From: an uncultured bacterium | GTDB taxonomy: Bacteria > Hydrothermota > Hydrothermia > B15-G9 > WFZT01 | Reading direction: 5' to 3' | Assembly: GCA_964571845.1 (NCBI GenBank) | Contig: CAZNDM010000074.1 | Span: 4,431 to 68,430 of the forward strand | Length of the DNA stretch: 64,000 nt | Shown: piece after piece, positions 2,146 through 58,675 of the stretch | How the letters are laid out: every line of letters begins with the position of its first letter | How positions within the stretch are numbered: the first letter of the stretch is position 1 | Translations under genes and position numbers: made by a program | Notes under the pieces: model-generated | What the model was told of the DNA's origin: nothing | What the model saw: the letters and a program-made list of their open reading frames with translations, nothing else | Databases searched by the model: none

Positions 2146-4161
2146 ATGGGCTTTTTACTTTTACTTCTCTCTATCAGTCTTACGGCGAATCTTCAGGACG
2201 CAATAGTCACAAGGGATTGGCCATCCATCTATAACCACATGTCCCTCAACAATTCTGATGAAAAGTTCTATCTCATTGTCTCACTTCTGCGCATGAGACA
2301 ATACGGCTTGTTGTATCAGTTTCTATCTATCAAAAAAAATCATCTAAAAAAACCGGAATATTTTGCTCTTCTTTATTCCAGTTACAACACGCCACTTGGT
2401 GATAGTCTGTTCAACGATTTGATAGAAACTGGATTAAATAAATATCCCGATATGGGAGATTTTCTGCTCTATCTTAGAATTAATAAAAATATAAGTTTAC
2501 AAAAAACTGGCTATGTCCTCCTGGATCTGAGGGTGATGAAACGGAAATACCCTGCAAGTACTTTCATGGAATACAGTGTTATTCTTACTCTAAGGTATCT
2601 ATATTCAAATACAGAATATCAAAAATTTCTGAAGACTTTTAATGATTACAAAAAGTATTTGAAATCTCGCTACAACCGGGCAGAAGCATACTATTATTAT
2701 CACAGAATCTTGCTTTTACAGAAGAAAAAGACTCTTGCCAAAAGAATAGCGGATCTTTTACTCACAAGATATTATAGAACCCCCTTTTCCTTTCGGGTAA
2801 TAAAAAGTGGCTCAAAAAAGTATCCATTTTACAAGGGTCTGTCGGCATTTTACAACGGACATTATAAAATTGCAATAAAGTATTTAAAAAAATCCAGTAT
2901 CCACAAAAAATTTCATTATCTAACTATTGCTTATTACAGGGCGGGGTACTACTCCAGAATTTTGAAACTCTACAGGAAGAAGCTCATTCCTGACTCTTTG
3001 AGATACTATGTAGCACTGGCGTATGAAAGGAAGAAAAAGTTCAGAAAGGCTTTGAGAGAGTTTTTATATACTGTGAGACACAGTGAACGATACAGTGGTT
3101 ATGCTGCCTATGAAATATCTTTTATCCTTGTGAATAATCCCAAAATATACCGTAAAGCTGGTGACTCATTCCCTCTAAATATCCCTAATCCAGATTATCT
3201 CCTGAGAATGGGTTTGATATATATGGTCTATGGTGAAAGAAACCGTGCAATTGCCTTTTTTGAAAAAGCTTTAAAGAGTAGAGATAGTTTCGTAAAATCC
3301 CAATCATTGTACTGGCTTTATCGCATCACCGGTATTTCTGCATACCGAGATAATCTTTTGAAAGAGCATCCTTTTTCTTATTTTGCGTGGATAACGAGAG
3401 GAGAAAAGGAAATAACAAGTGTGGATTCACTTGCTTATCCATTAATAAAAAACAACCATAATTTTCTCTCTAAAGGGTCCCAATACTGGGATAGATTCCA
3501 CATATTCACATTTCTTGGACTCAACAATTACGCCCTTAGAGAGTTAAAAAAGTGTCGAAAAGACATAAAGGAGTGTGTCGAATTTGCGTATCTTACAGGT
3601 GTGGACAATCTCACCGTGGAAATTTTCAGAAAATTTAAATCGCTTGAGAGTAAGAAAGAGAGTCTAATCTTTGGGTATCCTCTGGCTTACTGGTACTTTA
3701 TAAAGGGGGAGACTGAAAATCCTTTTCTCTTTATATCACTGCTGAGGGAAGAAAGCCATTTTAACCACATGGCAATCTCCCCCGCTGGTGCAGTGGGTAT
3801 CGCGCAGATTATGCCGTACACTGCATCTAAAATTATGGGAAGAAGGGTAAAAAAGGATGAGTTACTCGACCCGTACTTTAATATGAAACTTGGTATGAGG
3901 TATCTCAATAAATTACTTGAACGGTATAGAGGAAATGAACCGTTTGCCCTTGCCGCCTACAACGCAGGTGAAAAGCGTGTTGACAGATGGCTAAAAAAGT
4001 ACTCAAAATTCGGGATAAATGAGGACCCTTACCTTTTTGTGGAATTCATTCCGTTCCGTGAAACACGAAATTATGTGCGTAGAATTATAAAAGATTACAA
4101 ATTGTACATTAAACTGTACTCAAGGATAACGGAAAAATTACTTGACCGTCAGGCCTCGTAG
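2146..4161 (+). CDS. slt: Soluble lytic transglycosylase (Slt70-like, TPR plus SLT domain)
   Basis: C-terminal REESHF, GAVGIAQIMP, AAYNAG and ETRNYV motifs; helical TPR-like N-terminal part; signal peptide. Confidence 0.88.
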   Translation: MGFLLLLLSISLTANLQDAIVTRDWPSIYNHMSLNNSDEKFYLIVSLLRMRQYGLLYQFLSIKKNHLKKPEYFALLYSSYNTPLGDSLFNDLIETGLNKYPDMGDFLLYLRINKNISLQKTGYVLLDLRVMKRKYPASTFMEYSVILTLRYLYSNTEYQKFLKTFNDYKKYLKSRYNRAEAYYYYHRILLLQKKKTLAKRIADLLLTRYYRTPFSFRVIKSGSKKYPFYKGLSAFYNGHYKIAIKYLKKSSIHKKFHYLTIAYYRAGYYSRILKLYRKKLIPDSLRYYVALAYERKKKFRKALREFLYTVRHSERYSGYAAYEISFILVNNPKIYRKAGDSFPLNIPNPDYLLRMGLIYMVYGERNRAIAFFEKALKSRDSFVKSQSLYWLYRITGISAYRDNLLKEHPFSYFAWITRGEKEITSVDSLAYPLIKNNHNFLSKGSQYWDRFHIFTFLGLNNYALRELKKCRKDIKECVEFAYLTGVDNLTVEIFRKFKSLESKKESLIFGYPLAYWYFIKGETENPFLFISLLREESHFNHMAISPAGAVGIAQIMPYTASKIMGRRVKKDELLDPYFNMKLGMRYLNKLLERYRGNEPFALAAYNAGEKRVDRWLKKYSKFGINEDPYLFVEFIPFRETRNYVRRIIKDYKLYIKLYSRITEKLLDRQAS

Positions 4162-9932: not shown

Positions 9933-10843
9933 ATCTCATTTTCTTCGGCTCAGGTGACTTCGCTACCATTGTCTTGAGAAAACTACTCACTGAAGGTGTG
10001 AACTTCCGGGCAGTTGTTACCCTCCCACCAGGGCCAAAGGGAAGGGGTAGAAAACTACGTGACCCTGAAGTTAAGGAAATTGCAGATAAGGCAGGTATTC
10101 CTGTCTTCCAACCTCAAAATCCAAATTCTGAAGAAACTCTCTTTTCACTTAAATTATTCAAACCAGACTTCTTAATTCTTACCGATTACGGGAAAATCCT
10201 AAAAAGACAACTCCTCGATCTTCCGGCTTTTTATCCATTAAACATTCATCCTTCGCTACTTCCAGAGTATAGAGGAGCGGCTCCGATAGAACGTGCAATG
10301 ATGGACTGTAAAGAAGAAACGGGAGTAACCTTAATGGTCATGGATGAAGGACTGGACACAGGTCCCATTGTCAAACAGGAACATATAAAAATTGGACCAA
10401 CTGAAATAAAATCTGAGCTCATGCTCCGTCTCGCAGAAACAGGAGTAAAACTGGTACTGGAGTCACTTTTACCACTCAAACTTAACAAATTAAGGCCCAA
10501 ACCTCAGCGAGGTAACCCGAGCTACGCTCACAAAATCCAGAAACAGGAACTATGGATTAACTGGGAAAAAACGGCTCAGAAAATTAAGTGCCACATCAAC
10601 GCCCTTTCCACAAAACCAGGTGTTAGGACTAATCTTGGTCCCTTAATGGTAAAGCTGATCAGGGCAGGTGTGTTCAATGACAGAAGTCCAGGCCCAGGTA
10701 AAATCGCAATAAAAGGGGATAAACTGCTCATTGGGGCTCTCGACTATTTTGTAGAAATACTTGAAATTCAACCACAGGGTAAAAAGATCATGTCGGCAGA
10801 AGAATTTCTAAGGGGATATAAAAGAAAACTCTCCACTGTTTGA
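9902..10843 (+). CDS. fmt: Methionyl-tRNA formyltransferase
   Basis: NIHPSLLPEYRGAAPI and GLDTGP motifs; follows def. Confidence 0.95.
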   Translation: MDQKTSLNGLNLIFFGSGDFATIVLRKLLTEGVNFRAVVTLPPGPKGRGRKLRDPEVKEIADKAGIPVFQPQNPNSEETLFSLKLFKPDFLILTDYGKILKRQLLDLPAFYPLNIHPSLLPEYRGAAPIERAMMDCKEETGVTLMVMDEGLDTGPIVKQEHIKIGPTEIKSELMLRLAETGVKLVLESLLPLKLNKLRPKPQRGNPSYAHKIQKQELWINWEKTAQKIKCHINALSTKPGVRTNLGPLMVKLIRAGVFNDRSPGPGKIAIKGDKLLIGALDYFVEILEIQPQGKKIMSAEEFLRGYKRKLSTV

Positions 10844-31555: not shown

Positions 31556-31654
31556 CTCACCCCCCAACCCTCGCTTTATCCTCCATGGTCCCACCCCATG
31601 AACAAAAAGATGCTCTCCCATCCTCAAAACTCATCTTCTTTATAATTTACCCAC

Positions 31655-33382
31655 ATGAAAATTGATAAACGTCTGTTCAAAGAAATAAGAAAGTACAAAT
31701 TATCACTGATCTCAACCACTATCCTCAGTTTTTTAATTGGGGTACTGATTGTACTACAGGCACGATACTTCAGCAAAATTGTCAATTTAGCATTTCTAAA
31801 AAAATACTCCTTAAAACAACTTTATCCACTCATACTTCTTCTCGTTGTCATAATTATTCTCAGAGCAGTGGCTCTGTATTTGAACTCGGTAGTGACGACA
31901 AACATCTCCATTAAAACGAGACACAATCTCAGAAAACGTCTCATCAAAAAAATTGTATCTCTCGGACCTTCTTTTACCAGCAAGGAACTAACAGGAGAGT
32001 TAACAACTACCCTTACAGAGGGAATAGAAAAACTTGATCCCTATATCAGGGAATACATTCCCCAAATCATTCTCACGGCAGTAATTCCAATTATGGTACT
32101 GTTTTTTGTGTTTCCACGTGACTTTTACACAGGGTTAATTTTCATTATCACTGCTCCCCTCATTCCCTTTTTCATGTATTTGATAGGACTCGCAGCCGAA
32201 AAAATCACCAAAAAGCAGTGGGAAACTCTGAGCAAGATGAGTGCCTATCTGCTGGATGTCATCCAGGGGCTCACAACATTGAAAGTTCTTAATCGTTCGA
32301 AGGAAGAGAAGGAAAGACTGAAACGTACCGTCGAGGAATTCCGTAAGACGACGATCAGTGTGCTTAAAGTAGCATTTATATCCGCTCTCACACTGGAACT
32401 GATAGCGACTCTCAGCACGGCCATTGTGGCAGTTGAAATTGGACTGAGATTGCTTTACGGCAAACTGGCCTTTGAACAGGCCTTTTTTATACTGCTACTT
32501 GCACCTGAGTTTTACACGCCATTCCGTCAGCTCGGCGCAAAATTTCATTCTGGCATGGCAGGAGTTGAAGCAGCAAATAGAATTTACCAGATCCTATCGA
32601 TCCAGAATCATGAAACTCATAACCAACTGAAAAAAATAGATTTTAACAACCGCATCCTGTTTAAAGAAGTCAAATTCTCTTACGGAGATAGAGAGGCTCT
32701 TCGTGGAATCAATTTTGAACTAAGAAAGGGAGAGAAGATTGCCCTTGTTGGGCCGACAGGGGCCGGAAAATCTACAATAGCCAGCCTGTTGTTAAAATTT
32801 ATTACGCCTGACGAGGGAGAAGTCTTTGTAGATTCAACTCCACTCTCCACAATCTGTGGAGATACATGGAGACAACTTATTTCATGGGTTCCTCAGTCAC
32901 CATACATTTTCAACACCACTATTATGGAGAACATCCTGATTGCACGTCCTGGTGCAACCTATGAAGAAGTCGTTGAGGCAGCCAAAGCGGCTCACGCACA
33001 TGAATTCATTACCAAACTTAAATACGGTTATAAAACAATTGTGGGAGAGAGGGGCGCAAAATTAAGTGGTGGTCAGGCCCAAAGAATAGCTATTGCACGG
33101 GCTTTTTTAAAAAACTCACCTATATTGATTCTTGATGAGGCAACTGCTAATCTCGATCCAGAGATAGAAAGGATGATCACCGATGCCACCTACAGGCTGT
33201 TACAGTCTAAAACTGCTCTGATAATAGCCCACAGGATCAGTACCATCTTCAAAGCAGACAGGATTATAGTCCTTGAAAATGGAAAAATAGTTGAGCAGGG
33301 AACTCACGAGTTACTCATGAAAAGAGGCAAGTTATATCCCAGGCTCGTTAAAAAATACAGGGGAGAATATGAAAACCTTTAG
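31655..33382 (+). CDS. cydD: Thiol reductant ABC exporter subunit CydD
   Basis: TM domain with LLLAPEFYTPFRQLG; GPTGAGKS, LSGGQAQR and LILDE motifs. Confidence 0.93.
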   Translation: MKIDKRLFKEIRKYKLSLISTTILSFLIGVLIVLQARYFSKIVNLAFLKKYSLKQLYPLILLLVVIIILRAVALYLNSVVTTNISIKTRHNLRKRLIKKIVSLGPSFTSKELTGELTTTLTEGIEKLDPYIREYIPQIILTAVIPIMVLFFVFPRDFYTGLIFIITAPLIPFFMYLIGLAAEKITKKQWETLSKMSAYLLDVIQGLTTLKVLNRSKEEKERLKRTVEEFRKTTISVLKVAFISALTLELIATLSTAIVAVEIGLRLLYGKLAFEQAFFILLLAPEFYTPFRQLGAKFHSGMAGVEAANRIYQILSIQNHETHNQLKKIDFNNRILFKEVKFSYGDREALRGINFELRKGEKIALVGPTGAGKSTIASLLLKFITPDEGEVFVDSTPLSTICGDTWRQLISWVPQSPYIFNTTIMENILIARPGATYEEVVEAAKAAHAHEFITKLKYGYKTIVGERGAKLSGGQAQRIAIARAFLKNSPILILDEATANLDPEIERMITDATYRLLQSKTALIIAHRISTIFKADRIIVLENGKIVEQGTHELLMKRGKLYPRLVKKYRGEYENL

Positions 33383-50045: not shown

Positions 50046-51572
50046 ATGTTTGTTTTAACACCCGATGAACAGAAAAGACTCAGGAAAATTGCCAACAGGG
50101 AAATTGGTCTCAAAAACCCTATTCTCACTGAGAATGCTGGTAGAACAGCATTTTCAGTCTTAATTGAGGAAATTGACCTCCCTGTTGATAGAGCTGTTGT
50201 TGTAATTGGGAAAGGTTACAACGGAGCAGAAGGACTGGTTGTTGCAAGATATCTACTTGAAAAATCACGTGAGTTATCAGTTTTTATCGTTGGAAAAAGG
50301 AGACATTTGAACAGAGAAGCTAAGGCAAATCTTAAACTTTTTGAAAAGTTCGGTGGAAAAGTCCGTGAAATTATTACACCGGATATTAACATCAGAAATA
50401 AATTTTTAAGAGCAAATCTAATTGTAGATGCAATTTGGGGAACAGGATTTAAGGGAAAACCTGAAGGAATTTACAGAAATATTATCAGCTGGATAAATGA
50501 ATCACGTGCCTACACCCTTTCACTCGACATTCCTTCAGGGGTAAATCCGGCTACAGGTGAGGTTTCAACCGATGCTGTATACGCTGATCTCACTGTAACA
50601 ATGGTTTTCCCAAAGGTTGGAAACATCTTCTATCCCGGTAAGTTACATACTGGAAAGCTCGTAATAGCGGATACTGGAATACCTGAGAAAATAGTGTCAC
50701 GAGAGGTCAAAAGGGCAACCTTTGAAGAAGAGGATGCCGCGAAATATATCATCACGGGTAATCCAAACGGTAGAGTACTGTTTATTGGAGAATTAGAAGA
50801 TTCTTTATTGTCAGCTAATGCCGCAATTAGAATTGGAGCCGGTACTTCCTACATTGCACTTCCCAAAAAGTATCTCAATTCTGTTTCACCTGTATCCCCA
50901 AACGTTGTAGAGCTACCCGTCATTGATAGGGGAGGTATCCTGAACGATGAATCGGCGGATTTTATCTGTAACTACGGCCTTGATTTTAATGCCCTTGTAA
51001 TAAACAGCGAAGCCCATGGAAAAATTTTAAATTCTCAGGGTTTCCTGCGACTGATAAAAAGATTCAGGGGATCAATTCTTATCGACTCCCCGGGTGAAGG
51101 CCTGCTTGGAATCCATCTAAACTGCCTGAGAAATAGAGAAAACCCTTCTATCCTGATGATTACAGCTCAGGAATTTAAAAAATTACTTAACCGTATTAAA
51201 GATGAAGATGACGTTGATCTAATAAAATCTGGTGTGGAATTCGCCACTTACAACAATACTGTGCTCGTTATCAAAGGAACTCCGGCAGTCGTATTCACCC
51301 CTGATGGTTTCACCTGGATAAATTCTACGGGTACCCCTGGACTGGCGAGTGGAGACACAGGAAGAGTACTTACTGGAATGATAGCCGGTTTGTTAACTCA
51401 AGGATACTCACCACCCAACGCCTCTATCCTGGCAGTTTTTCTCCATGGACTGGCAGCAGACATCGGAGTCATTGACCTTACTAAACACACACTTATTGCC
51501 GGGGATCTGATTGAATATATACCCGAAGCGATAAGATATTTAAAAGATTATGAAGACATGGATCAAAGTTAG
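50046..51572 (+). CDS. nnr: Bifunctional NAD(P)HX repair protein (YjeF_N plus carbohydrate-kinase domain) with degenerate motifs
   Basis: ENAG, DAIWGTG, DIPSG and ADTGIP (YjeF_N); VIKG..AVV, NSTGTPGLA and AVFLHGLAAD (YjeF_C). Several catalytic loops are altered. Confidence 0.85.
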   Translation: MFVLTPDEQKRLRKIANREIGLKNPILTENAGRTAFSVLIEEIDLPVDRAVVVIGKGYNGAEGLVVARYLLEKSRELSVFIVGKRRHLNREAKANLKLFEKFGGKVREIITPDINIRNKFLRANLIVDAIWGTGFKGKPEGIYRNIISWINESRAYTLSLDIPSGVNPATGEVSTDAVYADLTVTMVFPKVGNIFYPGKLHTGKLVIADTGIPEKIVSREVKRATFEEEDAAKYIITGNPNGRVLFIGELEDSLLSANAAIRIGAGTSYIALPKKYLNSVSPVSPNVVELPVIDRGGILNDESADFICNYGLDFNALVINSEAHGKILNSQGFLRLIKRFRGSILIDSPGEGLLGIHLNCLRNRENPSILMITAQEFKKLLNRIKDEDDVDLIKSGVEFATYNNTVLVIKGTPAVVFTPDGFTWINSTGTPGLASGDTGRVLTGMIAGLLTQGYSPPNASILAVFLHGLAADIGVIDLTKHTLIAGDLIEYIPEAIRYLKDYEDMDQS

Positions 51573-52974
51573 CCTTTTAATCCTCTTAATTTCAAGCTTA
51601 AAAGCTTATAGCACACTTAACATCGGCAAATTCCTATATGTCAACTCCATCGTTAAACAGAGCAATAGACTGGTGGTAGCGACCGATGGTGGAGTTTTTC
51701 TATACAATCTCTTTGACAATAAGATTGAGCACACACTTGTTACACAATTTGCTGTCAAGTTGTGTATTATTCAGAACTTACTTACTGGATTTTTTGTTGA
51801 CTACATGGGCAATCTTTACAGATGGGATATTGGACATGACGAGAAATACTTCATCTCCAGTGTCGGGCCTGCAACTTCCCTCGGTGTATGCTGTGATAAA
51901 ATCTATATCGAAAACAATGGTAATGTAACTGCATATACCAACTCAGGTATTCGTATAGGACCGGCAAAACCTGAACCAGGGACATATTGGGTGGGAAAGA
52001 TAAATTCTATAAAGCGTGGAGACGACAAAATTATTTTCCTTCAACCTTACTTTTTTATAGACAATTATGCTGGAAGAATTGATTTTTCATATTTTTACAA
52101 AAATTTCACTGATCTGTGGGTCGGGACAAGAGGAAAGGGGATCTATAAATACGATTTGAATCTGAGGATAAAAACAGATTCCATTCAGATTGGACTTCCT
52201 TTTAGAGAAGTACAGTCAATTGCCTCTGATGGAAAATACATTTTTATCGGGGGGAATAACGGATTGGTTAGATTTGATGGGAACATCTGGATGCCCATAC
52301 TTTCTGGAGGTCAATCTGGTCTCTCATGTCCCAATATCCTTAAACTCGAAGTAGCTGATCAACGTTTAATAATTGGTACTCAATGCGACATAGAATATCT
52401 TGGTAAATACAGAATTAACCGTTTAATACGTAATGCTACTCTCCTCGGGGTCTCCAGAAATATAATTATTGCTCAGAACAACGATCATGTATATTATTTC
52501 AATCTCAGTGGAGCAGTATTGAAAGAATTCAAATTCCCTTATAAGATAAAGAAAATCTTAAACTTTGGAAGCTCTGAACTCCTTCTCGCCAATGATAATA
52601 TTCTTAAAATTTCTGATTCTACTATTCTCCCATTAAGGAGTTTGAATGCGTTTTCTCCCATCTATTCAATGACAGTATCTAAGGACACCCTCTTCGTACT
52701 TTCAGAAATAGGTCTATTAGAGGTATCGGACGGGATTATCGAGAAGCTGGTCCTCCCCTTTAGACCAGCCTCGAATACTCCTTATCCAATGATCTGTATC
52801 AGGGAAAAAATATTCATCGGAAGTACCGACGGCCTATACATGTTTAACAGAAAAACGGGAAATCTTGAGAAAATTTTCTGTAGCCTCCCGGACAATCGTG
52901 TGAATACGTTATCATACTGGCATGGTAAATTATTCGTAGGTACGCCTTCAGGATTGTGTATAATCACTCCCTAA
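51550..52974 (+). CDS. Hypothetical secreted beta-propeller protein
   Basis: Signal peptide; repeated LWVGT.G.GIY, IFIGGNNGLVRF and LFVGTPSGL blade motifs. Confidence 0.7.
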   Translation: MKTWIKVSLLILLISSLKAYSTLNIGKFLYVNSIVKQSNRLVVATDGGVFLYNLFDNKIEHTLVTQFAVKLCIIQNLLTGFFVDYMGNLYRWDIGHDEKYFISSVGPATSLGVCCDKIYIENNGNVTAYTNSGIRIGPAKPEPGTYWVGKINSIKRGDDKIIFLQPYFFIDNYAGRIDFSYFYKNFTDLWVGTRGKGIYKYDLNLRIKTDSIQIGLPFREVQSIASDGKYIFIGGNNGLVRFDGNIWMPILSGGQSGLSCPNILKLEVADQRLIIGTQCDIEYLGKYRINRLIRNATLLGVSRNIIIAQNNDHVYYFNLSGAVLKEFKFPYKIKKILNFGSSELLLANDNILKISDSTILPLRSLNAFSPIYSMTVSKDTLFVLSEIGLLEVSDGIIEKLVLPFRPASNTPYPMICIREKIFIGSTDGLYMFNRKTGNLEKIFCSLPDNRVNTLSYWHGKLFVGTPSGLCIITP

Positions 52975-55130
52975 CTATTCTCCTTTAGATTATTCAGGAG
53001 ACTCTTTATATCCGGTGAAGGCTCAATGTCATAACGTTTTTTTAAAGTTCTCTCGTAGAGTTTAAACACCTTGACGGCATTTGCACGTTCCCCGGATTCA
53101 AGTAGAAGATTTATATAACTCTTCACAATGTTGTCATTCGTTGGATCAACAAAGAACGCCTTATCAAGAAGCACCTTCATTTTACCTCTCTCTCCACTTT
53201 CACTGTAAAACTTGACAAGCATCTGGACAGCCTGGAAATAGAGATTCCTCAAACGTTCTCTCTCAATATAAACAAAATCACTGTAAATATCATCCTCAAG
53301 AAAGTCACCTCTATAAAGTTCAACTGCCCTTTCGAGTTTGACAACAGCTTCTTTCCTATCAACCGTGCGAGTGGCCTCTTTAATGAGATTTTCAAAAACT
53401 ACAGTATCGAGAGTCACTTCGTCTATGTATAAACCGTACTTTCCATCGGCATAAACTATTATCGAAGGCTTATCATCCTTCAGTAGCCAGGGCTCTATCA
53501 CATCGCGGAGTAAGGAAATATAGACTCTAAGCTTACCATGAGATTTCTCCGGATTCTCCCCTGGCCAGATGGATTCCATGATATAATCCCGTGGAAGCAA
53601 TTTATTCTTATTTACCACGAAAAATTTAAACAGGTCTCTAACAGACGGCCTCTTCCAATCAGTCGACGTGATCTTATAAGGACCAATAAAGACTTCAAAG
53701 TTCCCAAACGTGTAAATATTTATGTTATATCTTGCTCTATACTCAGAAACGAGAGTTCGATAACTTTCCTTTTCTTCAGGAGTTTTAAGTTTTGTTTTTA
53801 TGGCAAGGAATAAATGAGGATGAAAAGTGGGTGATTTTATCAGGTTCTTGATAATCTCCTTAATGGAGAATTCCTGAACGACACCATGGATAAATTCATT
53901 ATCTCCAAGCAAAGACGCAACCTTAACAAAAAATTCTGGATATTCAATCTCTCTCTTAATCTCGTTCATTACATAAATGAGGTCTTTTTTAAATAGCGTG
54001 AAATAACCTATTCTGCCGTGTCTTTTCTGTATACATTTATAAATTCTGTTAAATAGATCGACTGCATCCTTTCTTAGTCCTCTTTTCAGCAGAAATTTTG
54101 CATAAACTGGAAGAATTACAATTAAGTCGTTACAAAATTCTTCCCCAAGGGCATTCTTTACCTTCACAGGGTTAATGGATTCCTGTTCGGTGATGGATTT
54201 CATAAAATAGGCAATTTTATACTCATAGGTATCCTTGTGTCCCCATCTTTTCAATATCTCATCAGCATGTTCCCTCACCTGTGAAAGTACCCCAAGCTTG
54301 TAGGCGAGAAGCAGGGAAACAATATGAAATGTCAGAAAATCATGGGCTTTATCAGTTTCAACCAACAATTTTTCCGACATTTTCAGATACTCCTGCGCTT
54401 GCCTATCCTTACCCAGCAGGAGAAATATTTTCGCAAATCCGTTTGAAATTGCAATTCTCAATGTCCCCGGTTCCAGACATTTCCCATGTTTTATTTCCTC
54501 AACAACCTTCAATGCATTATCTGAATCCTTCATTTCTGCATAAAGTTCTGCAAGATTGATCAGGTTATTGCAAAAAATGGGCCTGAGATCAATCCGTGAT
54601 GATAATTTTGCAGATTCCTTGTACATATCAAGTGCATTTTTTATATCACCTCTCACATCATAAGCTACAGCAAGATTGGATAAGGCAGTCACAATTAAAT
54701 GCAAGTCACCACGCTCCTCTGCTACTGAGAGGGCTTTCTTTAAATAATCAATCGTATTGTCAATTCTATTGATATAAAAATAACCGGTAGCAAGATCGAT
54801 GAGGTAAGACGCATACTGTGGAGTATTCCTCATCTCACCCTCAATGCCTCTCAAAATCTGGATTCCAACATCAAAATTTCCCTTACCGATCTCGACTCCA
54901 CCCAAACCCCATAATGAGTAGGCTTTTATTTTGGGATCAGGAGAGTTTTTCGATTTTTTAAAACATACCTCGGCTTCAAAGAATCTGTTCAAAAATTTAT
55001 ACCCCATACCAAGAAAAAGATAAACTTCACAATCCTTTTTATCATCCGGTATCTTCTCAAGCAAGTTTACCCCCTCTTCATACTTACCGCGGTAGTACAA
55101 ATCTATTACCTTATCTATAACGTCTCTCAT
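52971..55130 (-). CDS. TPR sensor plus OmpR-type wHTH plus BTAD (SARP-family) transcriptional activator
   Basis: N-terminal TPRs; IYTFGNFEVFIG...W...RDYIMESIWP...LRVYISLLR wHTH; LYRGDFLED...ERERLR...DIEPS BTAD. Confidence 0.88.
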   Translation of the reverse strand: MRDVIDKVIDLYYRGKYEEGVNLLEKIPDDKKDCEVYLFLGMGYKFLNRFFEAEVCFKKSKNSPDPKIKAYSLWGLGGVEIGKGNFDVGIQILRGIEGEMRNTPQYASYLIDLATGYFYINRIDNTIDYLKKALSVAEERGDLHLIVTALSNLAVAYDVRGDIKNALDMYKESAKLSSRIDLRPIFCNNLINLAELYAEMKDSDNALKVVEEIKHGKCLEPGTLRIAISNGFAKIFLLLGKDRQAQEYLKMSEKLLVETDKAHDFLTFHIVSLLLAYKLGVLSQVREHADEILKRWGHKDTYEYKIAYFMKSITEQESINPVKVKNALGEEFCNDLIVILPVYAKFLLKRGLRKDAVDLFNRIYKCIQKRHGRIGYFTLFKKDLIYVMNEIKREIEYPEFFVKVASLLGDNEFIHGVVQEFSIKEIIKNLIKSPTFHPHLFLAIKTKLKTPEEKESYRTLVSEYRARYNINIYTFGNFEVFIGPYKITSTDWKRPSVRDLFKFFVVNKNKLLPRDYIMESIWPGENPEKSHGKLRVYISLLRDVIEPWLLKDDKPSIIVYADGKYGLYIDEVTLDTVVFENLIKEATRTVDRKEAVVKLERAVELYRGDFLEDDIYSDFVYIERERLRNLYFQAVQMLVKFYSESGERGKMKVLLDKAFFVDPTNDNIVKSYINLLLESGERANAVKVFKLYERTLKKRYDIEPSPDIKSLLNNLKENS

Positions 55131-55134
55131 AACC

Positions 55135-55180
55135 TTGTTAACACCACGTTAACAATTTTGTAACACCTAAATTTTAACAT
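55135..55180 (+). promoter_or_regulatory. Divergent control region: three TAACA repeats at 11-bp period, 8-bp inverted repeat, and -10 TAACAT
   Basis: TAACA ends at 55143, 55154 and 55165; TTGTTAAC-N5-GTTAACAA at 55135-55155; TAACAT at 55175-55180 with no -35 consensus. Confidence 0.55.
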
Positions 55181-55187
55181 AATACGC

Positions 55188-55361
55188 ATGGTAAAGAAAT
55201 TTTTTACAATGGAATTTGTTAAAACGGACGATGGCCAGGTCAGAATCGTTGTAAAAATCCTCGAAAAAGAAATTAAAGAAAAGATTTTCAAATCTATAGA
55301 TGAGACCCTCAGTTTCCTTAAAGAAAAATTTTTAGAGGAGGTGAAAAGGAATGAGGAATAA
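55188..55361 (+). CDS. Unannotated 57-aa protein (MVKKFFTMEFVKTDDGQVRIVVKILEKEIKEKIFKSIDETLSFLKEKFLEEVKRNEE)
   Basis: Hand-translated. It has protein-like composition, fills the gap between the BTAD gene and the clostripain gene, carries the GGAGG SD of the next gene, and overlaps its start. Confidence 0.65.
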   Translation: MVKKFFTMEFVKTDDGQVRIVVKILEKEIKEKIFKSIDETLSFLKEKFLEEVKRNEE

Positions 55362-56994
55362 ATTCGTTGTTGGCATATTGGGCATAATAATCCTTGCAAT
55401 TGCAGGATGCAAAAGCTCAACAACAGGCTCACCAGCACCATCAAATCCCAGCTGGACTATCATTGGGTATCTCGATGGAAACAATAATCTCGATATCAGC
55501 AACAATGGAACTTCCTACGTGATTGAAGATGCCCAGAATCTCGAACTTGTAGGAAGCACAGAAGATGTCAACATAATAGTTGCCGTTGGTTCAATCAAAA
55601 AAGGAGGTATCGTCAAATACTACTTCATTGAACATCATGAACATGAATTACCAGATTCTCTAAGCTCACCGGTGCTCGAAAATCTGGGAACACGCGATAT
55701 GTCTGATCCTACCACATTACAACAATTTATTGAATATGCGGTCGAACACTACCCTGCCGATCACTATGCTCTCCTCATCGATGATCATGGAGGCGGATGG
55801 AGAGGATGCTGTGCTGACGACCAGAATGGCTCAGGAAATCTCATGTCACTAAATCAACTCAAATCGGCTATCCAGAATGCAAACGTGCACTTCGATCTTG
55901 TAATTTTCCACGCTTGCCTTATGGGACAGGCAGAAGTTGGTTATCAGCTCAAGGATATCGCAGATTACATGGTTGCATCAGAATTTACATTGCCCATGCA
56001 GAGCGTTTTAAACGCTCCAGAATGGCTCGACTCCCTCGTGAATAGACCATCCATGTCTGCCCGGGAACTCTCCATGAAAATAGCTGAAGCTGTCTACAAC
56101 GCTGGCCAGAGACTCCAGAAAATCGTTCACATGGCCGCTATTGATCTGAACTATATGAATGCACTGGGGGCAGACATTGGTGTACTGGGTAATAGAATAG
56201 TTGACAACGTCAATGGACACTGGGATGAGGTAAGAGATGCGTGGGGAAGAACTCATTATACCCAGTACGATGACCCAACTTTCGTTGATATCAGAGAATT
56301 TATAAATAATTTGAAAAATGAACCTAATGTCGGACAGAATCCCTCTATCAGAAATGCAGCAGATAACGTACTGAATGACCTAAATGAGGCCGTTCTTAGA
56401 ACCTACACCAATGCACCAGGACTTACCCGTGGAGGCCTCACTATATATTTTCCCTCTACTCAAGCCGAATTCCAGCAGGATTCAGCCGCCTATGCATCTA
56501 TTGATTTCGTACATACCAACTGGATCAACTTCATCCACCAATTCATTATTAATGCTGGCGGAGGCGGTGGAGGTGGCACTGGATCGGTCACAATCAGTGG
56601 GAATCTCACAACTGCCGGAGGAGAAACACAATTTACACCTATAGCAGTTTTCAGCCACGACCAGATTCTTGATCAGAATGATACTCAGGTACAGGGTAAT
56701 CCTATTGGTATAGGGAACTTTAACCTGACCTTTCAGGTCCCTGAAGGTTATGGACAGGGGGATTATATCCTCTTCGTCTTCCTCGGTACCCACTGCTTCG
56801 ATCTGGACGGAGATGGACAGGCAGATGATGTCTTTGTAGGTTTCTATCCCGAACCGGATCAGCAGGGTAACATAGTGTTCACAAATCTTCAGGAATCCTT
56901 TACCGGTGTGACTGTTGATGCAAACTACTACATACAGAATGGATGTGGTGGAAAAAGTAGAATATTTGGAAAAGTTCATCTTATTGGAAAATAA
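55351..56994 (+). CDS. Clostripain-related (C11) cysteine peptidase lipoprotein with extra C-terminal domain
   Basis: Lipobox IAGC, YLDGNNNL, DHGGGW (His), FHACLMG (Cys), ASEF; poly-Gly linker; DLDGDGQADD motif. Confidence 0.9.
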   Translation: MRNKFVVGILGIIILAIAGCKSSTTGSPAPSNPSWTIIGYLDGNNNLDISNNGTSYVIEDAQNLELVGSTEDVNIIVAVGSIKKGGIVKYYFIEHHEHELPDSLSSPVLENLGTRDMSDPTTLQQFIEYAVEHYPADHYALLIDDHGGGWRGCCADDQNGSGNLMSLNQLKSAIQNANVHFDLVIFHACLMGQAEVGYQLKDIADYMVASEFTLPMQSVLNAPEWLDSLVNRPSMSARELSMKIAEAVYNAGQRLQKIVHMAAIDLNYMNALGADIGVLGNRIVDNVNGHWDEVRDAWGRTHYTQYDDPTFVDIREFINNLKNEPNVGQNPSIRNAADNVLNDLNEAVLRTYTNAPGLTRGGLTIYFPSTQAEFQQDSAAYASIDFVHTNWINFIHQFIINAGGGGGGGTGSVTISGNLTTAGGETQFTPIAVFSHDQILDQNDTQVQGNPIGIGNFNLTFQVPEGYGQGDYILFVFLGTHCFDLDGDGQADDVFVGFYPEPDQQGNIVFTNLQESFTGVTVDANYYIQNGCGGKSRIFGKVHLIGK

Positions 56995-57001
56995 GTGATA
57001 A

Positions 57002-57036
57002 GTTCGGGGCGCTGCGCAAAGCGCAGCGCCCCGAAC
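57002..57036 (+). terminator. Perfect 16-bp hairpin after the clostripain gene
   Basis: GTTCGGGGCGCTGCGC-AAA-GCGCAGCGCCCCGAAC. Confidence 0.6.
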
Positions 57037-57630
57037 AACATATTAACACCTCCTGAATGCCAATTCTCCTCCAATTCAACAACTCATCACCTTTGGAACA
57101 TCTCCCCTCTGTTCCTCCAGTACTCTAAAACAGTAATAGATAAGTTGCCTCAAAGAATAAATGGCAAAAATACAGGAATTCCAGCTCATCACATCGTCTC
57201 TCAAAATCGGGCACTCCATGTACAGACTGCTCACTTCGGCAATGTTAATGTCATCGCAAAGTAACCATTGCGATTTACACATATATTCTGGGCCCCAATG
57301 GGTAATATCAACAAATAGAAGGGAAATTTAAGAGTTCCTCCACCGCAGAGGGGCGATGAAATAGATTTTACACATCTTTTGACCTCAAAATAGTATGAAG
57401 ACCTATTCTGATCTTCTTCCCTGAGAGTTTTAAATGGAAGAAAATTAAATGCCACCTTTCCAATTTTAAAAGGCAAAAAATTTACCAATTTTTTCATACT
57501 GCAAAAAATAATGCAAAAACGGTGCACCAATCTACCTTCTCTGATGTATTACAACAAAATTGTGAAAAAATCCCCATCCAACCCCTCCGGGCGATAATCC
57601 ACCAGCTCCTTTCCCCAGACCCCCTCTTTA

Positions 57631-57667
57631 GGTCTGGTGGAGCCCCCTTCGGGGGCTCCACCAGACC
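57631..57667 (-). terminator. Perfect 17-bp hairpin after etfA
   Basis: GGTCTGGTGGAGCCCCC-TTC-GGGGGCTCCACCAGACC. Confidence 0.6.
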
Positions 57668-57673
57668 CTACAA

Positions 57674-58675
57674 TTAATCAACTTTATAAACTTCCTTCAA
57701 TTCCTTTATCAATTCCGGTACCACCTTGAAGAGATCGTCCACAATTCCGTAATCCGCTACCTTGAAGATCGGAGCCTCAGGATCCTTATTGACCGCTACT
57801 ATAACCTTCGATGTCCTCATACCTGCAAGATGCTGGATCGCTCCTGAAATGCCGAACGCCATGTACAGTTTGGGAGCCACCACCTTACCTGTCTGACCAA
57901 CCTGGTGAGAGTGATCAATCCAGCCACTATCAACGGCAACACGGGATGCACCAAGTGCAACCTTCCCTACACCAGCCTTATTTAAAACATCGATAAGCTG
58001 GCGGAGAAGCTCAAATCCCTCTGGACCTTTGACTCCTCTACCACCTGAAACGATTATGTCAGCCTCCGTAACATCAATTTCGCCTGTCTCCTTTTCCTTG
58101 ACCTGAAGGACTTTAGCCTTGAAGTCGTCATCTGATAGATCAACACTTAACTCCTCTGCCGAGGCACTTCTCGACGAGTCGGGCTCCCCCTTCTCGAAGA
58201 TCTTTGGCCTGAGTGAGATGATGGCTGGCTCAGCAGAAAGTTCAAAAGTTCCGTAAACCTTACCTGCATAGAGGGGCTTGACCACTTCAAATTTTCCGTC
58301 TTTGTATTCAAGTCCTGTGATGTCAGAAACCATTGGAACACCAAATTTTGCGGCAACTCTGGGAGCAAGATCCTTACCGAGGCTCGTTGCTGAGAGCAAA
58401 AATACTTTTGCATCAGCCTTGTCCATTGCAGCTTTTACAGCCTTCGCATAGGGTACAGTGAGATAATTCTGCAATCTATCATCTGAGACCTTGAGGATCA
58501 CATCTGCGCCATACTGTGCAAGTGTGTTATCAAATCCATCGGTCTTTCCAATCAAAAGTGCATAAACCTTGCCACCTGAAGCATCGGCGATCTTTCTCGC
58601 CGTATTTAAAGCCTCAAGTGAAAACTCTCTAACTTCATCCTTTTTCGTTTCAATATAAACCAGGATGTTTGCCAT
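57674..58675 (-). CDS. etfA: Electron transfer flavoprotein alpha subunit
   Basis: [39 protein letters not shown] and NKDPEAPIF motifs. Confidence 0.96.

Follow-up and report, generated by a model that had tools for sequence, protein, structure and literature searches.

Activators of the SARP family carry an OmpR-type winged helix-turn-helix (wHTH) followed by a bacterial transcriptional activator domain (BTAD) and work at direct repeats that overlap the -35 region of their target promoters (PMC10936776, PMC10972967). The repeats recur at 11 or 22 bp and the 3' repeat lies 8 bp from the -10 element; in the afsS promoter, two 11-bp repeats at -40 to -30 and -29 to -19 make up the afs box (-40 to -19) (PMC10936776). 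In all SARP classes described, the SARP domain is N-terminal and any extra domains, such as NB-ARC, tetratricopeptide repeat (TPR) or LAL domains, are C-terminal (PMC10972967). The locus presented here lies in a window of 64,000 nucleotides (64 kb), the whole stretch that was analysed, from contig CAZNDM010000074.1 of an uncultured WOR-3 bacterium. It comprises the gene of a 719-residue TPR-wHTH-BTAD regulator, a short intergenic gap with three phased repeats, and a divergent unit of a small open reading frame (ORF) and a lipoprotein gene. It is interpreted, with moderate confidence, as a lineage-specific, locally acting SARP-type activator locus; DNA binding, activation, the site at which transcription begins, the signal that is sensed and what the small protein does are all predictions.

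The regulator gene and its domains are located as follows.

52971..55130, minus strand: regulator gene, 719 residues, recognised by its ORF, Pfam and NCBIfam matches, matches to PDB sequences, and orthologues
53727..55130, minus strand: residues 1-468, an all-alpha TPR-like superhelix and presumed ligand- or protein-binding sensor, from AlphaFold, Foldseek and collinearity with AAA-TPR-BTAD proteins
53421..53726, minus strand: residues ~469-570, OmpR-type wHTH, from PF00486 and the orthologue alignment
52989..53411, minus strand: residues 574-714, BTAD (PF03704, 72.5 bits, E = 6e-20)

In searches of PDB sequences, the C-terminal 220 residues of the regulator matched the SARP chains of AfsR in its complexes with RNA polymerase (8hvr, 8k60 and 8jke) and, more weakly, EmbR (2fez). 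The wHTH region aligns with the DNA-binding domains of both proteins. The SARP domain is at the C-terminus (residues ~469-719), the BTAD following directly on the wHTH. Pfam places TPR_12 and TPR_MalT matches at residues ~100-290. In the AlphaFold model (six orthologues), residues 1-468 consist of helices only, mostly at high predicted local distance difference test (pLDDT) values and with zero beta-strand; Foldseek matched this part to TPR scaffolds, for example LGN/Pins, OGT and designed consensus TPR proteins. An earlier note on this DNA had described the protein as a TPR-wHTH-BTAD regulator lacking an NTPase domain. That description holds, since neither Pfam nor NCBIfam gave an NTPase match and the model of residues 1-468 contains only helices.

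AfsR of Streptomyces coelicolor likewise combines a SARP domain with TPR. The order is reversed in the window regulator, where the TPR part is N-terminal and the SARP part C-terminal, and the NOD/NB-ARC ATPase of AfsR is missing. The host, an uncultured WOR-3 bacterium, also differs, and there is no link with secondary metabolism: the neighbours of the locus in the window are YjeF, ETF and thiolase genes, and no biosynthetic cluster for secondary metabolites was found around it. The small SARPs ActII-ORF4, RedD and DnrI, and also EmbR, have the same wHTH plus BTAD unit but no TPR sensor; EmbR has an FHA domain instead, and these proteins are actinobacterial pathway-specific regulators (PMC10972967). 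STAND/NLR regulators such as AfsR and MalT are characterised by a P-loop NTPase (NB-ARC or AAA_16), which the window regulator does not have.

Five full-length orthologues of the regulator, with 49-74% identity, were found among 5.8 billion proteins. A search using only the SARP domain gave four weak matches, all at 29% identity or less, the nearest non-orthologous SARP domain (29%) being that of a 316-residue small SARP. The best matches beyond the clade are proteins of ~1,080 residues (P0007, P0008 and P0013) in which an AAA_16/AAA_22 module is followed by a MalT-like TPR region, a wHTH and a BTAD. These proteins share the order of TPR, wHTH and BTAD with the window regulator and are collinear with it, with 21-29% identity over the C-terminal 250 residues (for P0007, 29% over the last 251 residues, the wHTH-BTAD portion). 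They differ by an N-terminal AAA/STAND ATPase of ~430 residues, which the regulator lacks. By sequence, the regulator looks like the MalT/STAND-like AAA-TPR-wHTH-BTAD layout minus its ATPase module. As far as the searches showed, none of the AAA-TPR-wHTH-BTAD proteins has been characterised. The assertion in the earlier note that this architecture had not been described is thus roughly right, in that the characterised SARPs all have an N-terminal SARP domain (PMC10972967), and needs the qualification that the domain order as such is shared by these uncharacterised proteins.

The regulator gene and the small ORF stand head-to-head, 57 bp apart, as had been noted before and as the coordinates of the gap (55131-55187) bear out. 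The gap reads T-GTTAACAccac-GTTAACAattt-TGTAACAccta-aatttTAACATaatacgc-ATG and contains the following elements.

55136..55183, plus strand: candidate promoter/operator block of 48 bp, TGTTAAC-N5-GTTAAC-N6-GTAACAC-N8-TAACATAAT, recognised by conservation in seven loci
55137..55147, plus strand: repeat unit 1, GTTAACAccac, at -51 to -41 if transcription starts at 55188
55148..55158, plus strand: repeat unit 2, GTTAACAattt, at -40 to -30 with the same start, the position of DRup of AfsR
55159..55169, plus strand: repeat unit 3, TGTAACAccta, at -29 to -19 with the same start, the position of DRdown of AfsR
55175..55180, plus strand: -10-like hexamer TAACAT, invariant in the seven loci

The TAAC cores of the three units start at 55139, 55150 and 55161, an exact period of 11 bp. 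This phased pattern occurs once in the 64-kb window, with 0.01 occurrences expected by chance. The conserved octamer TGTAACAC ends 8 bp ahead of TAACAT, and no -35-like hexamer is present 17 bp upstream of the latter. The distance from TAACAT to the ATG is 7 nt in the window and 7-10 nt across all seven loci. In sequence, the repeats fit the pattern of SARP target promoters, both in their 11-bp period and in the 8 bp that separate them from the -10 element, and binding of the regulator to them is predicted. The earlier note had given such 11-bp-periodic repeats as a property of SARP activators without spotting them in the gap; they are present there. The likeness extends to the AfsR-afsS pair: the 11-bp repeats take the place of a good -35 element, the 3' repeat being 8 bp from the -10 element (PMC10936776), and the adjoining target gene encodes a protein of ~60 residues. 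The window differs from that pair in having three repeats rather than two and in the divergent orientation of the genes. The small protein of the window has no relationship to AfsS, and co-transcription of its gene with a lipoprotein gene is predicted.

Seven independent loci were available for comparison, namely, the window, L001, L002, L004/L129, L003, L072 and L102/L180. All belong to one narrow WOR-3 clade, those closest to the window being metagenome-assembled genomes of WOR-3, and regulator, operator and small ORF occur together in every one of them. In the 48-bp block, 37 of the 48 columns are invariant, and the six other loci are identical to the window at 38-45 of the 48 positions. 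Variation within the block is found in the spacers between the repeats. In the adjoining regulator gene, whose wHTH is nearly invariant at the protein level, third codon positions are only 35-43% identical, which is close to saturation, and the block is therefore judged to be under selection. The alignments provide strong evidence that it is a functional cis-element, tied to the regulator and held by strong purifying selection.

A number of observations weigh against the activator interpretation, the first of which concerns synteny. The earlier note had set conserved synteny of the three genes in relatives as a test of its proposal, and it does recur in L001, L002 and L004/L129. The clade as a whole, however, also keeps the regulator-side flank, with YjeF and a 473-residue gene (and TamB where the contig reaches) in L001, L002, L003 and L180, so synteny alone is no proof of functional linkage. 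It was rejected as such because the flanking genes are kept in L001-L003 too; C11 loci from outside the clade and L180 were used instead. The conservation of this flank together with the module, wherever it is on the contig, would be expected if there were no regulatory relationship at all, the genes being neighbours by shared descent and the block being the site of an unrelated factor or a housekeeping promoter. That explanation is quite unlikely. The cargo genes and the genes on the cargo side differ in L180, yet regulator, operator and small ORF have stayed together there, and the presence of 11-bp repeats with SARP spacing next to a gene for a SARP domain would be a remarkable coincidence. 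A metagenome scan with GTTAAC-N5-GTTAAC-N6-GTAACA, a loose pattern with at least 119 matches, yielded no extra regulon members; among the matches listed, the extended operator was present only in L072, L102 and L129, all of them loci of the clade.

The remaining points on this side concern the regulator and the gap themselves. The wHTH was modelled by AlphaFold with low confidence, and its match to Trans_reg_C (PF00486, residues 497-547) is marginal, the score of 27.3 bits barely exceeding the cut-off of 26.2; within the wHTH, the stretch RVYIS-LRDVIEPWL is nearly invariant in the alignment of the orthologues. A scan for the sigma-70 consensus called no promoter within the gap, and the regulator's own promoter was not located by it either. 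The consensus may not be that of WOR-3, and the scan is considered uninformative here because an activator-dependent promoter is expected in a phylum without a defined consensus. No second copy of the operator was found within the 64-kb window. The AfsR-like register of units 2 and 3 rests on the assumed start at 55188, and the absence of a Shine-Dalgarno sequence before the small ORF was rejected as proof of a leaderless transcript, only 18 of the 45 long ORFs in the window having such a sequence. Finally, GTTAAC is palindromic, and units 1 and 2 may also be taken for the inverted repeat TGTTAAC-N4-GTTAACA, to which a dimeric repressor of another family could bind.

The palindromic nature of units 1 and 2 would also suit a block that serves mainly as the regulator's own autoregulatory operator and does not activate the small-ORF/lipoprotein operon. 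The position of the block agrees with this: it starts 4-6 nt from the regulator ATG in all seven loci and has stayed on the regulator side in L003 and L072 despite an insertion of ~85 bp. Such a purely autoregulatory function is nevertheless improbable. BTAD/SARP proteins activate at direct repeats over the -35 region (PMC10936776, PMC10972967), and the invariant rightward TAACATAA hexamer with an ATG at 7-10 nt, also in the loci with the insertion, points to a rightward promoter and not to a leftward leader. Autoregulation and rightward activation can coexist. Given the 4-6 nt between the repeat block and the regulator start codon, occupancy of the repeats by a SARP-type activator probably also autoregulates the regulator gene.

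No Rfam family was found in the region 52000-58000. An unrelated conserved promoter-like element was encountered on twelve soil metagenome contigs (L066, L068, L073, L117, L130, L132, L134, L136, L144, L154, L172 and L176). It consists of three GTTAAC(A) repeats with an 11-bp period and TAnGATAC and lies ~60 nt upstream of a conserved ORF of 64-67 residues (MAISNELSSEIAAALLAEKKSPQELKQLKDV...). No BTAD relative was found on those soil contigs (L066, L068, L073 and the others).

To the right of the gap, the divergent unit starts with the following features.

55188..55361, plus strand: small ORF, 57 residues, recognised by codon-position substitutions and by conserved length and start
55335..55341, plus strand: GAGGAGG, the Shine-Dalgarno sequence of the lipoprotein gene, located within the 3' end of the small ORF and seen in the sequence
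55351..56994, plus strand: lipoprotein gene, 547 residues (PF03415; PDB matches 6mzo, 9cip and 6n9j)

The two genes overlap by 11 nt (55351-55361), and the internal Shine-Dalgarno sequence, GAGGAGGTGA, is also present in L001, L002 and L180. Overlap and internal Shine-Dalgarno sequence both support the two-gene unit that had been proposed. In comparisons of the small ORF with L001, L002 and L004, 25-29 differences fall at third and 6-8 at second codon positions; the corresponding numbers for the more divergent L003 are 37 and 17. The length of the protein (57-58 residues) and its N-terminus and start codon are kept among the loci of the clade. Judged by these substitution patterns, the small ORF is evolving as a real protein-coding gene. 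An exhaustive phmmer search retrieved homologues in clade members only; a 954-residue repeat protein (P0020) was dropped as a candidate homologue, its match being driven by the repeats. AlphaFold predicts a beta-beta-beta-alpha fold (pLDDT 81.8), for which Foldseek found nothing significant in the PDB and gave no clue to a function, the best E being 0.33 and TM values not exceeding 0.52 (matches to an EF-P domain, a dsRBD and Pur-alpha-like proteins). No signal peptide and no hydrophobic segment were detected, the maximum Kyte-Doolittle value over a window of 15 residues being 0.46. The protein thus appears to be a cytoplasmic orphan restricted to the clade.

The mRNA from which the small ORF is translated is probably leaderless or nearly so. 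The ~85-bp insertion in L003 and L072 follows the promoter block and shifts the small ORF away, and the conserved ATG stays behind TAACAT. An ATG conserved at 7-10 nt after TAACAT, L003 and L072 included, fits such a transcript. In these two loci the conserved ATG opens an upstream ORF of 28 residues (MKDN[RH]LKTHK...), on the minus strand in both (L003, ~300-395; L072, ~350-435). Its stop codon overlaps the start of the small ORF, as ATGgtTAG in L003 and as ATGA in L072, which suggests coupled translation of the two. Elsewhere in the window (~31635-31657), a perfect TATAAT lies 8 nt upstream of the ATG of a 575-residue ORF (31655) that lacks a Shine-Dalgarno sequence. With such sequences in only 18 of the 45 long ORFs, starts of leaderless appearance may be frequent in this genome.

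The juxtaposition of a small ORF and a TPR receptor, with a surface protease in the same operon in the sub-lineage of the window, recalls RRNPP/arbitrium systems. In a system of that kind, the small ORF would encode an exported pro-peptide, perhaps processed by the C11 enzyme, that is sensed by the TPR domain. This is highly improbable here. RRNPP/arbitrium receptors have an N-terminal HTH, C-terminal TPR and a secreted pro-peptide, whereas the window regulator has a C-terminal wHTH-BTAD and the small protein, which lacks a signal peptide and a hydrophobic segment, is predicted to fold into a beta3-alpha domain. The C11 domain is, moreover, dispensable.

Small cytoplasmic inhibitors are co-transcribed with secreted cysteine proteases in the staphostatin/staphopain and Spi/SpeB operons. 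The window resembles these operons in that a small protein without a signal peptide shares an operon with an exported cysteine protease. In the window, however, the small protein is encoded ahead of the protease and is half as large. It resembles the inhibitors neither in sequence nor in fold, and it is kept where the protease domain is missing.

The latter point follows from the distribution of the genes. C11 homologues are abundant in WOR-3, Hydrothermota, KSB1, Calditrichota, Zixibacteria and Bacteroidota. Among 56 genome loci carrying a C11 gene, the regulator and the small ORF are also present only in L004. Neither gene was found in the 52 C11 loci outside the clade, which include WOR-3 orthologues of the protease at 48-66% identity; neighbours of the orthologues are transketolase, asparaginase and DUF72 genes in L047 and radical SAM, DUF123 and kinase-helicase genes in L179/L011. 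In L180, conversely, where the regulator is 51% identical, the genes of a 177-residue lipoprotein and a 207-residue outer membrane protein (OMP) beta-barrel, and then a GC hairpin, come after regulator, operator and small ORF. The 177-residue lipoprotein is made up of a lipobox, poly-Gly and a C-terminal domain that is 43% identical to residues 403-545 of the window protein (E = 8e-38), the D-x-DGDG loop included; a C11 domain is absent. The flank on the cargo side of L180 also differs (ADH and aminotransferase genes). The OMP beta-barrel gene of L180 (PF13505, 9704-10327) is the third gene of its operon, is coupled in translation to the lipoprotein gene by an overlap of 4 nt and has no counterpart in the window. 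In L003 and L072, the cargo genes are cut off: a lipobox and poly-Gly are followed by "ITVSG", resembling the start of the C-terminal domain. Every contig of the L003/L183 and L072 sub-lineage ends within the stretch of GGN repeats coding for poly-Gly, an assembly breakpoint, and no longer contig exists for this sub-lineage.

From these sequences, the conserved unit is composed of the activator, the operator, the small protein and the tethered lipoprotein domain, and the C11 protease is optional, as the regulator, operator and small ORF of L180 are combined with a C11-free cargo. Identities between the C-terminal domains are ambiguous with respect to gain or loss of the C11 domain. The small protein goes with the regulator and not with the protease, given the 52 C11 loci without both genes and the L180 module without C11. 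This bears on the proposal of a dedicated proteolysis regulon, in which the TPR domain would sense a substrate or peptide and induce the surface C11 enzyme, the 57-residue protein acting on the protease as inhibitor or chaperone. In the window, L001, L002 and L004/L129, it is true, the small ORF is translationally coupled to the gene of an intact C11 lipoprotein, with invariant dyad and lipobox, and TPR scaffolds usually bind peptides. The proposal is nonetheless unlikely in view of the L180 cargo, the truncated cargo of L003 and L072 with its direct passage from lipobox through poly-Gly to the start of the C-terminal domain, and the many C11 loci outside the clade, close WOR-3 orthologues among them, without small ORF and regulator. 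Moreover, the small protein does not resemble known protease inhibitors. Of the earlier view of the locus as a "proteolysis module", the C11 cargo of the window, L001, L002 and L004/L129 stands, and the general association of protease with regulator and small ORF does not. The TPR activator facing a surface-protease unit was likewise partly right: a SARP-type regulator, repeats and a coupled small-ORF/lipoprotein unit were found, and the dedicated protease regulon was not upheld.

Further features of the lipoprotein gene and of the operon end are these.

55786..55788, plus strand: codon of the catalytic His146, aligned with solved C11 chains and invariant
55909..55917, plus strand: codons of H187-A188-C189, with His187 in place of the S1 Asp, from the alignment of C11 chains (PMC4850288)
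56578..56991, plus strand: C-terminal domain with a C-x-D-x-DGDG-x-x-DD loop, 39-43% identical to the 177-residue lipoprotein of L180
57002..57036, plus strand: perfect GC-rich hairpin at the operon end, with a 16-bp stem and a 3-nt loop (-37.6 kcal/mol, z = -7.6)

The lipoprotein is built from a signal peptide with the lipobox Cys20, a C11 clostripain-like domain (~27-402), seven Gly residues (403-409) and the C-terminal domain (410-547). PF03415 matches residues 49-395 at profile positions 5-356 of 359 (E = 7e-36). The lipobox LAIAGC (MRNKFVVGILGIIILAIAG-C20) fits the rule [LVI][ASTVI][GAS]C. The dyad motifs DDH146GGGW and FHAC189LMG align with those of 6mzo and clostripain, and C20, H146 and C189 are invariant in 20 homologues; DLDGDGQADD occupies residues 484-493. 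All the elements that the earlier note had ascribed to the protein (His/Cys motifs, poly-Gly and a C-terminal domain with DxDGDG) were therefore located, as was the perfect hairpin closing the unit.

With PmC11, clostripain, fragipain and thetapain the protein shares PF03415 and the caspase-like His/Cys dyad, its sequence matches being 6mzo, 9cip, 6n9j and 5dyn, and Bacteroidales relatives are likewise described as secreted or lipoprotein enzymes. It differs from these peptidases in having His187 at the position of the S1 Asp and in adding the poly-Gly tether and a C-terminal domain of no described family. The latter gave no Pfam or PDB match, except for a sub-threshold FG-GAP-like match over the DGDG loop. 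Specificity for Arg/Lys is conferred in PmC11 by Asp177 and in clostripain by Asp229, the conserved primary residue at S1 (PMC4850288). The residue two before the catalytic Cys is His in 86 of 105 matched homologues and Asp in 14, mostly more distant ones. Because His187 replaces the S1 Asp, Arg/Lys specificity cannot be assumed for the window enzyme, and the homologues suggest a large subfamily of C11 whose P1 specificity is non-canonical and probably not for Arg/Lys. C11 peptidases are characterised by autoprocessing at a basic residue between the two residues of the dyad; in the window protein, the motif GGGW-R151-G is conserved just after the catalytic His.

A canonical intrinsic terminator has a U-tract after its GC-rich hairpin. 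No U-tract follows the hairpin of the window, and the terminator scan makes no call there. Perfect GC-rich hairpins that lack a U-tract and differ in their stem sequences are also found at the operon end in L002 (~4090-4125), L129 (~1130-1160) and L180 (~10335-10370), which suggests that the lineage uses terminators of this type. The ~640 bp after the hairpin (57037-57673) contain no credible ORF, no Rfam match and no remnant of an AhpC or OMP-barrel gene. An AhpC/Redoxin gene occupies the corresponding position in L002, and conservation with L002 and L004 is limited to the last ~100 bp of the stretch. On the other side of the locus, a gene for a 474-residue secreted protein (51550-52974, plus strand) overlaps the YjeF gene on its upstream side and is convergent with the regulator gene, with which it shares 4 bp. 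The protein shows only a faint resemblance to the N-terminal beta-propeller of PorZ; genes of 461-473 residues occupy the equivalent site beside the regulator in L001, L002, L003 and L180.

In the mechanism that best accommodates these observations, the cytoplasmic TPR domain would sense a ligand or protein, and SARP protomers would bind side by side on the three 11-bp-phased repeats with GTTAAC core (55137-55169). The repeats would stand in for the -35 element, and the bound protomers would bring RNA polymerase to the weak -10 element TAACAT. Transcription would begin at the ATG at 55188 or within ~3 nt of it and give a leaderless or near-leaderless bicistronic mRNA, encoding the 57-residue protein and, coupled through the 11-nt overlap and the internal Shine-Dalgarno sequence, the lipoprotein; the hairpin at 57002-57036 would terminate the transcript. 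The lipoprotein would be held at the cell surface by its poly-Gly tether. The small protein may have a part in the regulation itself, for instance by partnering the TPR domain in a feedback loop. A regulatory role is favoured over that of an inhibitor or chaperone since the small protein co-occurs with the regulator and not with the protease, and with AfsR/AfsS as precedent it is the most likely one. A more elaborate version is possible but doubtful: the locus would be a minimal closed-loop switch, with an NTPase-less descendant of STAND-type SARPs, a TPR domain gated by the induced 57-residue protein (comparable to AfsR and AfsS, except that the feedback would be direct), and a swappable C11 head with His-type S1 on a poly-Gly-tethered surface module.

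What appears to be new, on the basis of the sequences compared, is a permuted, ATPase-less, non-actinobacterial SARP with a small-ORF target in a narrow uncultured clade. The narrowness of the clade and the predicted nature of the functions make the practical impact modest. A short, well-defined operator and a separable DNA-binding domain make the prediction directly testable in vitro. By-products of the analysis are a C11 subfamily with His at S1 and a small orphan protein tied to a regulator by its distribution. SARP activators have been studied almost wholly as actinobacterial antibiotic regulators with an N-terminal SARP domain. The present locus suggests that the same promoter logic, with phased repeats in place of the -35 element and 8 bp to the -10 element, operates in an uncultured phylum of the FCB group, where it would be combined with a reversed domain order and no ATPase and would have envelope proteins instead of secondary metabolism as its targets.

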